Source: Thermoanaerobacter sp. A7A (lineage in GTDB: Bacteria > Bacillota > Thermoanaerobacteria > Thermoanaerobacterales > Thermoanaerobacteraceae). From it: 64,000 bases of DNA. Positions 1,657 through 46,175 of this stretch are shown in pieces. A model generated the notes under the pieces. It was not told the DNA's origin. It did no database searches and saw only the letters and a program-made list of their open reading frames with translations. The position numbers and the translations under genes were made by a program. The DNA is taken from contig NZ_AVAF01000093.1 of assembly GCF_000445185.1 (NCBI RefSeq), positions 33,357 to 97,356 on the forward strand. The letters run 5' to 3'. How positions within the stretch are numbered: position 1 is the first letter of the stretch; each line of letters opens with the position of its first letter.

Positions 1657-2919
1657 TTATTTCCTTATTTGTCCACTACCTAAAATTACATATTTGTAGG
1701 TGGTAAGCTCCTCAAGTCCCATTGGCCCTCTCGCATGCATTTTTTGTGTACTTATTCCTATCTCTGCCCCAAAACCAAATTCTCCTCCATCTGTAAAGCG
1801 AGTAGAAGCATTTACATACACAGCAGCCGAATCTACAGATTTTAAAAACATCATGGCATTTTCATAATTTTCTGTAATAATGCTTTCAGAATGGCCTGTG
1901 GAATACTTTGAAATATGATCTAAGGCTTCTTCTATGCCATCTACAACTTTTACAGCCAGTATAAGGTCTAAATATTCCGTTTCCCAATCCTTATCTGTAG
2001 CCTCTTTAACTTGAGGACATATTTCTTTTGTAATTTGACACCCTCTTATTTCTACTCCCAAAGAAGTCAATTCTTCTACCATTAAAGGCAAAAACTCTTT
2101 TGCAATAGATTTGTGAACTAAAACTGTCTCTACTGCATTACATACCCCTGGCCTTTGAACTTTTGCATTCACAATGATGTCTTTTGCTATATTAAACTTA
2201 GCTGTTTCATCAACAAAAATATGACAATTGCCTACTCCTGTCTCTATTACAGGCACTGTAGAATTTTCAATGACATTTTTTATAAGACTGGCTCCACCTC
2301 GAGGAATAATGAGGTCAATTAGACCGTTTAACTTCATCATACGGTTTACTTCTTCTCTATCAGTATTTTCTATAAGCTGTATTGCCCCTTCAGGAATACC
2401 AGCCTCATAGGCAGCTTCAGCAAGAATAGAAGAAATTGCTATATTGGAATTGATCGCATCACTTCCTCCCCTTAAAATCACAGCATTTCCCGATTTCAAA
2501 CATAGGCCTGCCGCATCAGCTGTCACATTCGGGCGAGATTCATAAATTATACCTATTACTCCAATTGGCACTCTCATTTTGCCAATTTGAAGTCCATTTG
2601 GTCTTTTCCACATCTTTTCTATACTTCCTACAGGGTCAGGAAGAGCAGAAATCTCTCTTAATCCTTTTGCCATAGCTTCGACTCTTTTTTCATCAAGTTT
2701 TAGTCTATCAATAAGAGAAGCTTTTATATTCCTTTTTTCAGCCTCCACAACATCCTTTTTATTAGCCTCAAGTATTTTTCCCATATCTTTTATTAAAGCA
2801 TCTGCCATGTGATTCAAAGCTAAATTCTTTGTATTTTCATCTAACACAGCCATTCTTCTGGCCGCAGCTTTTGCCTGTTTTGCCTTTACTTCAACTTCCA
2901 AACTTCTCACCTCTTTCAA
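1657..2919 (-). CDS. proA: Gamma-glutamyl phosphate reductase
   Basis: [49 protein letters not shown]. Confidence 0.97.
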
Positions 2920-4009
2920 GTATTACGAGATTATCCCTATGAATCACTTCATCATAATACTTATAACCTAGTATTTTTTCTATATTATGAGTTTTACAAC
3001 CTTTTATCTTTTCAACTTCTTCTGAAGAATAATTAATAAGTCCTCTGGCAATCTCTTTTTCTTGATGGTCAACTACTGCAACACAGTCTCCTACATCATA
3101 ATCTCCTTCAGTTTTTACAACTCCACTTGGTAATAGACTTTTCCCATGCTTTATAATAGCTTTCGCTGCTCCTTCATCAATAAAAAGTCTTCCGCTCACT
3201 TTCGCATTAAAAGCAATCCAAACTTTCCTGCTACTTATTGGCTTTTTCATAGGCAAAAATGTAGTGCCAATTTTTTCGCCATTTGCTATCCGATTTAATA
3301 CATTGTCAATTTTCCCATTCGCTATAATCATCTTAACTCCTGAATTCCAACATATCTTTGCTGCCTGAATCTTTGTATACATTCCCCCAGTTCCTCTTTT
3401 TGTCCCAGCACTACCAGCAATTTTAAACAATTCATCTGAAAACTCTTCTACGACTTCTATAATTTTTGCCTCTTTATAAATTCGAGGGTCTTTATCATAA
3501 AGCCCATCAATGTCAGTTAAAATTATTAAAATATCAGCCTCAACTAAACTAGCAAGCAGCGCCGCTAAAGTGTCATTGTCTCCAATTTTAATTTCATCAA
3601 CAGTTACTGTATCATTTTCATTTATTATTGGCACAACACCCCATTTGAGCAGGTTTGACAAGGTATAACTGACATTTAAATATCTTCTTCTATCGCTAAA
3701 ATCTTCCTTAGTCAAAAGAACTTGCGCAGTAATTTTGCCATATTCATTAAAAAACTTTTCATAAATTTCAATTAAAAGCCCTTGCCCTATAGCCGCTAAG
3801 GATTGCTTTTCTGGGATGGTTTTAGGTTTTTCCTTTAAATTTAATTTTCCCATTCCCGCCCCAATTGCCCCAGAAGTTACTAATACTACTTCCTCTCCTC
3901 TGTTTAATAAATTAGCAATTTGCCTTACTAACTTCTCCATTATTTCTAAATTCAATTTACCATTTTCATATGTCAAAGTGCTTGTACCAACTTTTACTAC
4001 AATTCTCAT
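2891..4009 (-). CDS. proB: Glutamate 5-kinase with PUA domain
   Basis: [30 protein letters not shown]-terminal PUA. Confidence 0.97.
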
Positions 4010-4884
4010 ACTTTCGACATCCTTTTTGCAATATTTAGATATATCTCTTTTAGTTTTAAAGCATCTTCTGCCATAGTTCCTCTCGATTCACATATGACAA
4101 TAGGCTCCATCTTTCTTTCATAGAAAAGCTGTGCCAAAGGCTCAAATTCTGGCCCGTATTGAGTGTCTTTCAGTGTCCAATGCCTTTTTTCTCCCTGATC
4201 TGTGTATTCAATTCTACTAAAATGGACGTGTATCTTTTTCGCCCTTTCTTTTCCCAAATACCTTTCAATAATATCCAAAACCTCTGCATAATCTTCTATA
4301 GACTTAAACCTTCCATTATCTCTTGCATGTAAATGGGCAAAGTCTATAGTGGGAATAATTCTCTTATCCACATTGCACAGCTCCAATACTTCTTCTAAAG
4401 TACCCAATTGGTTTTTCTTTCCCATTGTCTCTGGACATAGGGTTATGTCAGTAAGTCCTTTGTCCTCTATCTCTTTTAAAATTTCCTTTAAAAGTTTTTT
4501 TGCTCTCTCTAAAGCCTCTTTTCTCGTCCCTTCTGCTCCCGAACCAGGATGAAAAGTTACCCTTTTAGCCCCCATCCATTTTCCTGCAATTAAACTATCT
4601 ATTAAGTATCTCTTGGAATTCTCCATTTTGGTTTTATCCGTAGTAGCTAAGTTTATGTAATAAGGAGCATGAACAGTAATAGTTATGTTGAATTTTTGTG
4701 CCCCTTCCTTAAGCTCCTTAGCCATCTTTTCGCTAATTTTTATTCCCCTTGAAAAAGAATATTCATACGCATCAAGCCCCATGTTATGGAGCCATTCAGG
4801 CATTTCTAAAGAAGATTTATGCCCTTCTTTGTAGAAACTATCAGAATTCCCAGATGGTCCAAATTTTATAGCCAATCCTCTCAT
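4006..4884 (-). CDS. Endonuclease IV-like TIM-barrel protein (AP endonuclease family 2)
   Basis: [29 protein letters not shown] metal-ligand pattern. Confidence 0.8.
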
Positions 4885-26706: not shown

Positions 26707-29340
26707 TCAATTTTTTAACTGTTCTTTTACAATATCTATCGCTTTGTTTAACGCTTCATCTACCTTAGATAGATTTTTGCCTGTTCCTTGAGCCATGTCT
26801 GGTCTTCCACCGCCATTTCCTTCAGATACTTTGCACACCTCTTTAATAATAGCTCCCATGTTTATCCCTTTTTGAACAACATCTTTAGTAGCCATACCGA
26901 CAAATATAGCTTTTTCTGGGGTAGAAGATGCTAATACTACTGCAGCAATTTTTAATTTATCTTTTAAAATATCTCCTAATGCCTTCAAAGCCTCACTATC
27001 ATAATCTTCAACCTTTGAAACCACTACTTTTATACCATCTAATGAAATAGCAGAATTGATTAAACTATCAGCCAAAATAGAAGCCATTTTTATTTTTAAT
27101 TGTTCTATCTCTTTATCTTTTGTCTTTAAAACTTGCTGCAAACTCTCAATTTTTGAAATTATCTCTTTATCTTGGACTTTTAATAAATCAGAAGCCTCTT
27201 TTAATATTTCTTCTTTCTCTCCTAAATATTTTATTGCAGCAAGTCCTGTTAAAGCTTCAATTCTTCTTAAACCTGCACCAACTGCACTTTCAGATACAAT
27301 CTTAAAAATCCCTATTTCGTTAGTATTTTTAACATGAGTTCCACCGCAAAGTTCCATGCTGTAATCATCAATTTTTACAACCCTTACTTTATCCCCATAC
27401 TTTTCTGTAAATAACGCAACAGCCCCTTCTTTCACTGCCTCATCATAAGTTTTTTCTTCAATATGCACATTTAAACTTTGGTATATCTTTTCATTAACCC
27501 TATTTTCTATTTGCTTTAGCTCTTCTTTAGTCACAGCTTGATAATGTGAAAAATCAAATCTTAATCGATCATCAGCCACAAGAGAACCAGCTTGATGAAC
27601 ATGGTCGCCTAAAATCTCCTTTAGGGCTTTATGAAGAAGATGAGTTACAGTGTGGTTTCTTGCAGCATTCCTTCGACTTACCACATCAATTTGAGCTTTT
27701 ACTTCATCTCCTACTGAAATTAAACCTCTTTCAATTGTTCCAGTGTGTATAAACTTATCTCCTATTTTTTTACAGTCATTTACTTTTATCAAAGCATTTT
27801 CATTCTCTAGAACTCCCTTGTCTCCTATCTGCCCACCACTTTCAGCATAGAAAGGAGTAACATCTAATATGATACTCACATCATCTCCAGCTTCTGCTTC
27901 CTCAACAAGCTCTTCATCTTTTACAATAGCTAAAACTTTTGAATCGCTTTCATAAGTATCATATCCCACAAATTTTGTTTTAATATCTCCTAAAGTAGAA
28001 TATATGTCTTGTTCCCACAAACTATTATCTTCTTTTCTGCTGCTTCTCGCTCTTATCCTTTGTTTCTCCAACTCCTTTGTATATCCTTCTTCATCAACAG
28101 TAATGCCAGCTTCTTGCAAAATTTCTTTTGTTAAATCCAATGGGAACCCATAGGTATCGTATAGTTTAAAAGCTTTAGAACCTTCTAATACGGTTTTTCC
28201 TTGTACTTTTAGTTCGCTTATATAATCTTGTAAAATTGTAAGTCCTTGGTCTATTGTCTCCTTAAATCTTTCTTCTTCCAGTTTGATTATTCGCTTTATA
28301 TAGTCCTTTCTCTCAATTATTTCAGGATATGCCTCTCCATAATTTTCTATGACTGAATCAACCACTTTATACAAGAAGGTATCGTTTATCCCCAGCAATT
28401 TACCGTGCCTTGCAGCCCTTCTTAAAAGCCTTCTCAAAACATAGCCTCTTCCTTCATTAGAAGGCAGAATTCCATCTGATATCATGAAAGTTATCCCTCT
28501 TATATGGTCAGTGATAACTCTCAAAGACACATCTTTTTCTGCATCTTTTCCATATTCTACTTCCGCAATCTTAGACACAAAATTAGTAATGCCTCTTATT
28601 ACGTCTACATCAAATATGCTGTCGACTCCCTGCATTATTGTGGCTATCCTCTCAAGTCCCATGCCTGTATCAATATTTGGATTTGGCAACCTGTGATAAT
28701 TTCCTCGTTCGTCTTTATTAAACTGGGTAAAAACTAAATTCCAGAATTCAATAAACCTATCGCAATCACAGCCAACTCCACAAGTAGGCTTCCCACAGCC
28801 TTTTTCTTCACCTCTGTCAAAATAAATCTCTGAAGAGGGGCCACAAGGTCCTGTGCCAATCTCCCAGAAATTATCTTCTTTCCCCATCCTCACAATTCTT
28901 TCAGGAGGTAACCCAACTATTTTATTCCAAATCTCAAATGCTTCATCGTCTTCCTCATAAATTGATACCCATAACCTGTCAACTGGCAATCCCAAAACTT
29001 CTGTGACAAATTCCCATGCCCATGGAATAGCTTCTTTTTTAAAATAATCACCAAAAGAAAAGTTACCTAGCATTTCAAAAAAGGTACCGTGACGTGCTGT
29101 TTTACCCACTCTTTCAATATCCGGTGTCCTTATACATCTTTGGCAAGTAGTTACTCGTTTGCTGGGGGGAGTTTCTTTTCCTGTAAAATAGGGTTTTAAA
29201 GGAGCCATTCCAGAATTAATTAACAATAAGCTTTTATCATTCTTAGGAATTAGAGAAAAACTTGGTAGTCTCAGGTGCCCTTTGCTTTCAAAAAAGCTTA
29301 AAAATTTTTCTCTAATTTCGTTCATCCCGAGTTTTTCCAT
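26707..29340 (-). CDS. alaS: Alanine--tRNA ligase
   Basis: [48 protein letters not shown]. Confidence 0.98.
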
Positions 29341-29361
29341 AAAAATCCTCCTTTTTGATAC

Positions 29362-29390
29362 AATAAAAACCGTCCCAAATTTGGGGACGG
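29362..29390 (-). terminator. Terminator in the short alaS leader
   Basis: CCGTCCC-CAAATTT-GGGACGG-TTTTTATT. Confidence 0.75.
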
Positions 29391-29416
29391 GCTTTTACCC
29401 GCTCTTTTTTGAGTAT

Positions 29417-29445
29417 ATTATACAAGATTGAATATAACAAGTCAA
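29417..29445 (-). promoter_or_regulatory. SigA promoter for alaS
   Basis: TTGACT-N17-TATAAT. Confidence 0.85.
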
Positions 29446-29453
29446 TAACTGGT

Positions 29454-30479
29454 TTATTTCTCAATAAAAATTTCTGTTACAATAACTTTCCCTATTGCTA
29501 CAACAGGCACAGATAATAAAAGCCCCCAGACGCCAAAAAGTTCCTCTCCTGCAATCAATGAAAAAATCACTGTAATAGGATGAAGCCCTACACTGTCGCT
29601 AATTATTTTAGGTGTTATAAAGGCATTTTCTATCTGTTGCACTAAAAGACACACAAGTAAAGCCCAAAAGCCTTTAGATAAAGAATCAAGGAGCCCTATT
29701 AAAACAGCAGGAATAATTGACAAGATAGGCCCTATGTAGGGAATTATATTTAATATTCCTGCCAATATTCCTATTAAAAAAGCATATTTAACTTTAATTA
29801 GAGAAAGGCCTATACTTGTAAAAATAGCAACAAAGATAGAAAGATATATTTGTGCTCTTATGTATTTACTTAAAATTTTGTCTATTTTTTTTAAAAGAGC
29901 AAAAAAACTATCATGATATTTGGAGGGAATCATTCTTTCAATTTCTTTTTCAAATACATTTTTATCTTTTAAAAGATAAAAAGTAATAATCGGTACAATT
30001 ATCACGTCTATAATATCTTTTAATATTGCAACAGTAGATTTAAAAACCAAATCGACACGAGAGGCAAAAAGATTATTTAGGGCATTCAAATTTTTATCTA
30101 AAACTTTTTCAAATTGAGGTGGCAAATAAGAAAAATAGTTAAATTTTAGTTGAATCAAAATTTTTTGTAGTTCTTCAGTATAGAAAGGTATCATTTTCAC
30201 AAAAATAACTATTTCATTTATCAACAAAGGGAGAATGTAAAAAGAAAAAAATAGTATTACCAAAGCAACAATTAAAAACACTAGAAGAATAGACAAAAAA
30301 GTAGAAAAGCCCTTTGAATTAAAAAATTTTACCATTGGATTTAATAAATAGGCTATTAAAGCGGAAACAAAAAAAGGGGAAAGTATATTTTTAATACTCA
30401 CCCAATTCTTTATAAAAAAATACAATAAGCCTATGGCACCAATGATTAAAAAAAGTAGATACACTTTTTTAACTTGCAT
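29454..30479 (-). CDS. AI-2E family transporter (YrrI-like)
   Basis: PF..S.LIAYLLNP, ..IP..TFY.L.D, IPYIGP, QQIEN..ITPKI, HP. Confidence 0.92.
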   Translation of the reverse strand: MQVKKVYLLFLIIGAIGLLYFFIKNWVSIKNILSPFFVSALIAYLLNPMVKFFNSKGFSTFLSILLVFLIVALVILFFSFYILPLLINEIVIFVKMIPFYTEELQKILIQLKFNYFSYLPPQFEKVLDKNLNALNNLFASRVDLVFKSTVAILKDIIDVIIVPIITFYLLKDKNVFEKEIERMIPSKYHDSFFALLKKIDKILSKYIRAQIYLSIFVAIFTSIGLSLIKVKYAFLIGILAGILNIIPYIGPILSIIPAVLIGLLDSLSKGFWALLVCLLVQQIENAFITPKIISDSVGLHPITVIFSLIAGEELFGVWGLLLSVPVVAIGKVIVTEIFIEK

Positions 30480-30496: not shown

Positions 30497-30658
30497 CTAT
30501 CTAATTTTTATTTTGTTCATTGTACGCCATATTTTTGTCATATTTTTTTCTATCATATCTTTATAACGTCTATATTTTCTCATATCTATTTTGGGAATTA
30601 TATATGCAGCAGCTACTATTCCTGCCAAAAATCCCTTTATATATTTGTCTCTATTCAT
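30497..30658 (-). CDS. 53-aa small protein with a short hydrophobic N-terminal segment (not in the ORF track)
   Basis: AGGAGG RBS; MNRDKYIKGFLAGIVAAAYIIPKIDMRKYRRYKDMIEKNMTKIWRTMNKIKIR. Confidence 0.75.
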   Translation of the reverse strand: MNRDKYIKGFLAGIVAAAYIIPKIDMRKYRRYKDMIEKNMTKIWRTMNKIKIR

Positions 30659-32422: not shown

Positions 32423-32716
32423 TCTATAATTCTTTTGCTTTATCCTGCAAAGAACCCGGCATTATTTGCATTAGTTCTATTCTATTTCTATCAGGATCTT
32501 CTATCCAATATTGATAATTTCCATCTGCTCCCATCATAGGCTGCCCCTTTATTCAATGAATTGTCCCTCCGCCACTTTTAGATATACAAGCATTAATTCT
32601 CCATTTTCATGGTTTAACCTAAATGCTTCTTTTAGACCTAATTTTTTACAATAAAACTCTATGCTTCTGTCAATATCTGTGACTTTGTAGGCTACATGCC
32701 CTAAACCTATTATCAT
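32423..32716 (-). pseudogene. VOC/glyoxalase-family pseudogene with internal deletion and frameshift
   Basis: Fragment 1 MIIGLGHVAYKVTDIDRSIEFYCKKLGL...GQFIE* (stop 32549); fragment 2 in another frame GQPMMGADGNYQYWIEDPDRNRIELMQ... Confidence 0.85.
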
Positions 32717-32788
32717 TTTAAAACCCTCCTAAAAAATATTATTCCTCACTCTATTATAGCAATCCCTTCAAATTTTTCATAATGCAAA

Positions 32789-45944: not shown

Positions 45945-46175
45945 CATTTAAAAACCCCTCGTCTGCAACAATTTGCAGGGACGAGAGGTTAAATCCCGTG
46001 GTGCCACCCTGATTTGGACTCATTCCCTTAACGCAGGTTCACGGACACAGCCTACCTTATCGACTGGTCTGCTCACAGGTGTCTTTCGCAATAGCATAAG
46101 TATGAAGATACTCTCAATCACGGTATCTTCTCCCTGTATACCTGCTATTGCTACTCTCCTGGTCATCGCATTTAT
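45945..46175 (-). promoter_or_regulatory. T-box leader of hisS-aspS (Asp specifier GAC)
   Basis: Stem I with AGTA/GAA loop and AGGGAG box; specifier loop GAAAGACA; GGGTGGCACCACGG...CGTCCC antiterminator; terminator with T-tract. Confidence 0.92.

Follow-up and report, generated by a model that had tools for sequence, protein, structure and literature searches.

An apparent T-box remnant, reduced to its terminator end, precedes alaS in Thermoanaerobacter and its relatives

Organization of the alaS leader

The window analyzed here, a stretch of 64,000 nucleotides from Thermoanaerobacter sp. A7A, carries on its minus strand the alanyl-tRNA synthetase (AlaRS) gene alaS, which is followed by ireB and ruvX and preceded by a gene for an AI-2E family transporter (Table 1). 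The two genes are separated by a spacer of 113 nt (minus strand). The TAA stop codon of the transporter (29456-29454) lies 8 nt before the -35 box of a sigma-A-type promoter, which in our promoter scan matches the consensus at 11 of 12 positions, with no TG extension, so that the coding end of the transporter is what is found upstream of this promoter. From the predicted start in an A-run it is only about 20 nt to an intrinsic terminator, whose stem of 7 bp (6 of them G-C), 7-nt loop and U5 tract make up the GC-rich hairpin and U-run typical of such elements. The near-consensus promoter, short leader and terminator that the initial annotation had reported before alaS are thus all in place, and the RNA string that it quoted is exact.

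Table 1. Features of the alaS leader and its flanking genes, in window coordinates
Feature	Position	Strand	Details
AI-2E family transporter gene, upstream of alaS	29454..30479	minus	341 aa; PF01594, E 5e-73
Sigma-A-type promoter	29445-29417	minus	-35 box TTGACT 29445-29440, 17 nt, -10 box TATAAT 29422-29417
A6 run, predicted +1	29410-29405	minus	7 nt past the -10 box; from the sequence
A2-like hairpin (putative residual antiterminator)	29402-29387	minus	GCGGG(U) 29402-29397, loop AAAA, (G)CCCGU 29392-29387
Intrinsic terminator	29390-29365	minus	CCGUCCC 29390-29384, loop CAAAUUU, GGGACGG 29376-29370, U5 29369-29365
Shine-Dalgarno sequence (SD)	29354-29347	minus	AAAGGAGG; from the sequence
alaS start codon	29340-29338	minus	ATG; from the sequence
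alaS (AlaRS)	26707-29340	minus	877 aa; Pfam tRNA-synt_2c E 2e-211, tRNA_SAD, DHHA1

The promoter scan returned no promoter-like site between the U-run and the alaS ATG, and a second promoter between the hairpin and alaS was rejected on this basis; because no promoter lies between the hairpin and the start codon, read-through of the terminator is required for alaS expression. No terminator belonging to the transporter gene precedes the leader hairpin, which is located 64 nt 3′ of the stop codon of that gene. Further upstream in the window, a 53-aa ORF with no Pfam match (30497-30658, minus strand) is situated between mnmA and the AI-2E transporter gene, and a terminator-like hairpin (30746-30724) follows mnmA.

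One congener (G007) displays a 1.9-kb group II intron in the sense orientation between the U-run and the alaS SD (L130, G007:C1:1744000-1748700, ~2651-4561). The intron is inserted 2 nt after the U5 run and is identified by Rfam matches for D1-D4 and domains V/VI (group-II-D1D4-3, D1D4-1 and Intron_gpII); its protein is encoded in two pieces, an RVT_1 ORF (309 aa) and a GIIM ORF (113 aa). Class C bacterial group II introns habitually insert just 3′ of intrinsic terminators. Since a good promoter was not found at the 3′ end of this intron, alaS in this genome must apparently be made by read-through followed by splicing, and we take the intron as independent support for read-through at the leader terminator.

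As the window was drawn from a 178-contig draft, the leader could in principle be an assembly artefact, a possibility that the initial annotation had raised, or a recent strain-specific deletion and hence an unstable feature. We consider this exceedingly improbable: a closed genome of 2.36 Mb from the same genus (L002) carries this leader letter for letter, two independent assemblies of different runs have it in identical form, and the same architecture recurs in 21 of 21 genomes of the family. Misassembly is refuted by these identities together with the family-wide layout, and the leader can be treated as real.

Relationship to T-boxes

The Rfam T-box model (RF00230, gathering threshold 93 bits) detects the hisS T-box of the window at 45974-46175; at the alaS leader (29200-29700) it returns no T-box at the gathering score and none at E<=10, and it returns none in nine leaders of the window's family. 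Stem I, the specifier loop and the distal platform are absent from the alaS leader, and the T-box sequence itself (AGGGUGGNACCGCG, comprising helix A1 and the 7-nt UGGN bulge) is absent from 29341-29453. In T-boxes the UGGN of this 7-nt bulge pairs with the NCCA end of the tRNA. The same T-box sequence is found both in the T-boxes of this organism's own genome and in the alaS leaders of a sister family. What the alaS leader does feature is the antiterminator 3′ strand CG(U/C)CC reused as the 5′ arm of a terminator and followed by a U-run (CCCGUCCC at 29391-29384). This is a discriminating signature: of the 11 T-box terminators of this genome, 10 have CG[UC]CC in their 5′ arm, versus 3 of 346 gene-end terminators, and its longer form CCGTCC occurs in the 5′ arm of just two of 793 intergenic terminator-like sites genome-wide, namely the serS T-box terminator and the alaS leader. 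Because the longer motif is common to only these two of the 793 sites, the likeness of the alaS leader to T-boxes exceeds chance. Although the alaS element would operate in the manner of a T-box expression platform, we classify it as a T-box derivative and not as a member of the class, because it fails the tests of covariance-model score, Stem I/specifier and T-box bulge. The initial annotation, which saw in the leader the 3′ stump of a T-box, is sustained by the presence of the A2-like helix, the CGUCCC strand and the terminator; as to the lack of Stem I, specifier and UGGN bulge that it described, inspection of the sequence and Rfam agree. A search of this genome for other T-box stumps found none.

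The initial annotation had further proposed aligning the alaS leaders of relatives in search of a full T-box, and such an element indeed emerged in a sister family of the same order, where a full Rfam T-box (98-141 bits) precedes alaS in 4 of 4 genomes, with the stump layout found in all 21 genomes of the window's own family. These sister-family T-boxes carry a GCC (Ala) specifier and a GGGUGGUACC(A/G)CGG motif, and they are orthologous in position to the stump, with a promoter on one side and a U-run-to-SD segment on the other that resemble those of the stump. In a global alignment, the sister-family promoter (TTGACAG...TTGTATAAT) and U-run-to-SD segment (TTTTTTATATTATACAAAAAGGAGGA) align with the flanks of the stump. 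The deletion junction could not be placed by global alignment of the stump with the sister-family T-box, and local alignment was discarded as a route to orthology with the sister alaS T-box, the stump matching the 3′ ends of paralogous T-boxes equally well. Taken together, the signature and the positional orthology support the alaS leader as a likely evolutionary remnant of an alanine T-box.

Beyond these two families, the other two families of the class show neither a T-box nor a terminator before alaS, and a similar promoter also precedes alaS in a Caldicellulosiruptor-like family. The distribution of alaS T-boxes in distant Clostridia is patchy, a motif search recovering them in 14 of 76 among the leaders listed. 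Two metagenome-assembled genomes, one of a Gudongella sp. (L094) and one of a Lachnospiraceae member (L069), have a terminator-like hairpin and U-run within 120 nt before alaS and are negative for an Rfam T-box; these are independent cases of a short, terminator-only alaS leader in unrelated lineages. The layout in L094 consists of TTGACA-17-TAAAAT, about 20 nt, then CCTCCCTTTAAAGGGAGG and ATTTTT. Another genome (G024, family f3) bears an alaS leader of about 170 nt with no T-box or other Rfam match (L035, ~540-700), and the leader of its congener (L034) is short. Layouts of a comparable kind are also seen at other genes. On contig C130 of the window's own genome (minus strand, ~32510-32730), a 12/12 promoter (TTGACA-16-TATAAT, with TGn) overlaps the rnr stop codon and is followed after 17 nt by a hairpin of -18.9 kcal/mol with a poor U-run and then by smpB, much as at alaS. 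On contig C145 of the same genome (plus strand, ~2270-2440), a 12/12 promoter, a 34-nt leader, a hairpin of -18.5 kcal/mol and UUUUAAUUUUU precede a gene starting MKRIFELTMKDIEGMDKNM; this locus could be a small unclassified attenuator.

Conservation in the family

Our sample of species genomes comprised 40 from the class, 27 of them from the order. In 21 of the 21 genomes of the window's family, spanning four genera, we found the same succession of transporter stop codon, promoter, A-run, CCGUCC(C)...GGACG(G) hairpin, U4-8 tract and SD. The promoter is kept in both position and sequence throughout, and the A-run has 4-6 residues in all members. Across 12 distinct leaders, 92.8% of the terminator stem cells are paired, with the loop varying from 4 to 11 nt among relatives; it is the sequence of the stem that is conserved, with one double change. 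The A2-like helix is intact in most species of the window's genus but degenerate in the other three genera, with 66.7% of its cells paired family-wide and no compensatory changes. Compensatory changes are nearly nil in both helices, but covariation is uninformative here, given how close the sequences of the family are.

Two other identities for these elements were considered and rejected. A palindromic DNA operator is disfavored by the spacing of the arms, which varies between 4 and 11 nt, as would be expected of an RNA hairpin but not of a DNA site bound by a protein. The A2-like helix, with its third pair G.U and the CCA that follows, might have mimicked the tRNA-Ala acceptor stem for AlaRS; however, three species of the same genus have A-U in place of the G.U or lack the CCA, and the other genera do not have the helix. 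In a separate congener (G009:C45:2849-3447), the alaS frame has in-frame TAA and TAG codons near codon 100 and the leader is intact; this genome is a draft (94% complete, 6% contamination), and the stops represent either an assembly error or a pseudogene.

Folding and terminator strength

The terminator hairpin is of ordinary strength (-11.7 kcal/mol), with 63% of 346 gene-end terminators being weaker. Before its 3′ arm emerges, the A2-like hairpin can form at -9.1 kcal/mol, a stability matched by only 2% of shuffled 5′ segments. The two hairpins overlap in CCGU (29390-29387), so that the A2-like one claims four nucleotides of the seven-nucleotide 5′ arm of the terminator. For the 46-nt transcript, the minimum free energy structure at 37, 60 and 68 C is a non-terminator fold (-14.2), which combines the A2-like hairpin with a slipped CCCA/UGGG mini-hairpin. 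Because the A2-like helix shares CCGU with it, the terminator stem is lowered to an equilibrium probability of 0.2-0.3 (computed with 20 nt of upstream sequence: 0.20 at 37 C, 0.31 at 65 C), which is below that of about 99% of 290 gene-end terminators (medians 0.96 at 37 C and 0.92 at 65 C), equilibrium folding with parameters extrapolated to 65 C being a poor proxy for co-transcriptional kinetics. Among the intact T-box platforms of this genome and the sister family, folded in their full antiterminator context, 9 of the 10 scored give 0.74-1.0; the tenth gives a probability of about 0, its hairpin being doubtfully defined.

The balance between the folds differs across the family. Most species of the window's genus have terminator probabilities of 0.2-0.75. 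The second large genus has a 5-bp terminator stem (-5.3 to -5.9) with probabilities of 0.35-0.8, and in the two genera represented by single genomes the terminator is uncontested at equilibrium (about 0.95-0.98). Prior to the emergence of the 3′ arm, an alternative hairpin engaging the terminator 5′ arm is possible in every genus, the fraction of shuffled 5′ segments that fold as well being 0.02 (g1), 0.02 (g4), 0.07 (g3) and 0.18 (g2).

Functional interpretation

We infer, with moderate confidence, that the leader is a T-box fossil that acts as a hard-wired, leaky attenuator of alaS and also ends the transporter mRNA. This proposal builds on the anatomy of the locus, its conservation, the absence of a sensor, the T-box ancestry indicated by the signature and the sister family, and the unusual thermodynamic competition at the terminator. 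An ancestor in the family (probably of the Thermoanaerobacter/Thermoanaerobacterium relatives) would have lost about 200 nt encompassing Stem I with the specifier, Stem III and the 5′ half of the T-box sequence, with helix A1 and the UGGN bulge also gone, so that helix A2, the CGUCCC strand and the terminator came to follow the promoter at a distance of about 20 nt. Because the sensor portion was lost, the leader RNA would no longer be able to read tRNA-Ala. Transcripts are predicted to start at the A-run, whereupon the A2-like hairpin (GCGGG/CCCGU) would fold first and occupy four nucleotides of the terminator 5′ arm; a presumed fraction of polymerases would then terminate at the U-run (about +46), and the remainder would continue into alaS. 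The combination of a near-consensus promoter and a leaky terminator would thereby set a moderate, fixed and presumably unregulated level of AlaRS, with the hairpin doubling as the end of the upstream transporter mRNA. On our reading of the folding models, this would amount to a switch locked partly ON after the loss of its sensor. A literature search found no maps of transcription starts or 3′ ends and no papers on alaS leaders for these genera.

Certain observations weigh against the leaky reading: a hairpin of ordinary strength could terminate efficiently, the strict conservation of a terminator before an essential gene could mean regulation, the A2-like helix that competes with it is preserved in a single genus, and there in most species only, and in the two single-genome genera nothing contests the terminator at equilibrium. 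The fixed partial read-through by way of GCGGG/CCCGU that the initial annotation had offered as one explanation is favored by folding in the window's genus; in the other three genera this helix is degenerate. In the window sequence the two folds are almost equal in energy, which is also what the design of a switch would look like, and the leader might hence be a minimal attenuator that is still regulated, its near-isoenergetic folds being tipped by a signal other than tRNA pairing, such as AlaRS, NusA/NusG, another RNA binder, start-site choice by NTP, reiteration at the A-run, temperature or the speed of elongation. Conservation across the four genera covers the purine-rich 5′ segment as well as the terminator, each genus can form an alternative hairpin with the terminator 5′ arm, and the weak 5-bp stem with U7 of the second genus is of the type seen in NusA-dependent terminators. 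Factor-dependent, terminator-only leaders are also known, e.g., the rimP leader (PMC2965389). However, the leaders have no conserved motif besides the terminator and the A/G-rich start, the alternative pairings differ among genera and lack covariation, and the likeness to the tRNA-Ala acceptor (G.U third pair and CCA) is lost in three congeners and all other genera. The initial annotation had named slippage on the A-run or a protein factor as its other explanation, and neither acquired specific support: slippage pairing with the terminator was rejected, as the added poly(A) could not base-pair with the CCGUCCC arm, and A-runs at the start are common in these AT-rich genomes, including relatives with no terminator. 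All told, we regard a leader that is still regulated in this manner as rather doubtful. The more specific proposition that the T-box stump was re-used as a regulated attenuator of about 45 nt, set by a trans factor or a physical signal, strikes us as decidedly unlikely; were it true, alaS would stay feedback-controlled with no tRNA-binding domain, and the short leaders of L094 and L069 would be convergent cases.

The hairpin could alternatively be in essence the terminator of the AI-2E transporter gene, largely ignored by the promoter-proximal, early elongation complexes that set out from the alaS promoter only about 20 nt away, in which case alaS would not be meaningfully attenuated. The transporter has no other terminator than this hairpin 64 nt past its stop codon, a few other loci here present a consensus promoter, then a hairpin, then a gene (e.g., rnr-smpB and the one on C145), and the efficiency of termination is known to be influenced by the sequence transcribed first. 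Nevertheless, the T-box signature implies that the hairpin originated in the attenuation of alaS and not at the end of a gene, termination does occur at short attenuators close to a promoter, that of Bacillus subtilis pyrG among them, and in relatives that have lost the leader entirely the two genes evidently need no terminator between them. This makes a hairpin that serves the transporter alone unlikely in our estimation, and we retain the leaky T-box fossil as the preferred reading.

Significance and comparison with known systems

The alaS leader offers a clean natural case of riboswitch decay, in which the sensor appears to have been deleted and the expression platform kept family-wide before an essential gene. 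It suggests how cells might survive the loss of the sensor, by an unusually competitive leftover antiterminator in one genus and by a weak terminator stem in another, and it is a natural minimal construct with which the basal read-through of a T-box platform, independent of tRNA, could be measured. For annotation, it cautions against assuming an undiscovered sensor wherever a terminator directly precedes a gene. We predict that alanine starvation does not induce alaS through tRNA sensing in Thermoanaerobacter or Thermoanaerobacterium, and that T-box-targeting compounds would therefore not act on this gene. The leader is not a new mechanism unless regulation is demonstrated; a literature search found no prior description of such a conserved T-box stump.

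Among other leaders of minimal build, that of rimP has its own GGGc...gCCC signature and is probably tied to NusA autoregulation. It has been described as a terminator-only 5′ attenuator (Naville & Gautheret 2010, PMC2965389). Like the alaS stump, it is short, has a conserved part that is more or less confined to the terminator hairpin, and stands before a gene of the translation apparatus; unlike it, the alaS stump bears the T-box signature, and no factor is implicated. The attenuator of B. subtilis pyrG functions through reiterative transcription, whereby the added poly-G pairs with a pyrimidine-rich terminator arm. The alaS leader resembles it in minimal build: in both, the promoter is followed by a homopolymer run at +1 and, within about 50 nt, by a terminator, and an aptamer is lacking. 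However, the alaS run is of A at the predicted +1, which cannot pair with CCGUCCC, and alaS has no connection to an NTP pool. In Escherichia coli, AlaRS reportedly autoregulates alaS by binding a DNA palindrome at its own promoter (Putney & Schimmel 1981). The gene is the same and a palindrome is again found near the transcription start; in the stump, however, the arms are 4-11 nt apart and followed by a U-run, which are features of an RNA hairpin and not of a dimeric DNA operator.

The closest comparison is with the alaS T-boxes proper (RF00230), which are known from Clostridia such as Clostridium acetobutylicum (PMC4695836) and from the sister family. The stump precedes the same gene, likewise lies between a strong promoter and the SD, and has the same 3′ platform of an A2-type helix, CGUCCC as the terminator 5′ arm and a U-run, with mutually exclusive hairpins. 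It differs in lacking Stem I, the specifier, Stem III, the T-box sequence, the UGGN bulge, helix A1 and an Rfam match, and because these sensing elements are missing, tRNA sensing is impossible in the stump. Relative to intact T-boxes, its residual antiterminator is also much stronger, with a terminator probability of 0.2-0.3 compared with the 0.74-1.0 of 9 of the 10 intact platforms.
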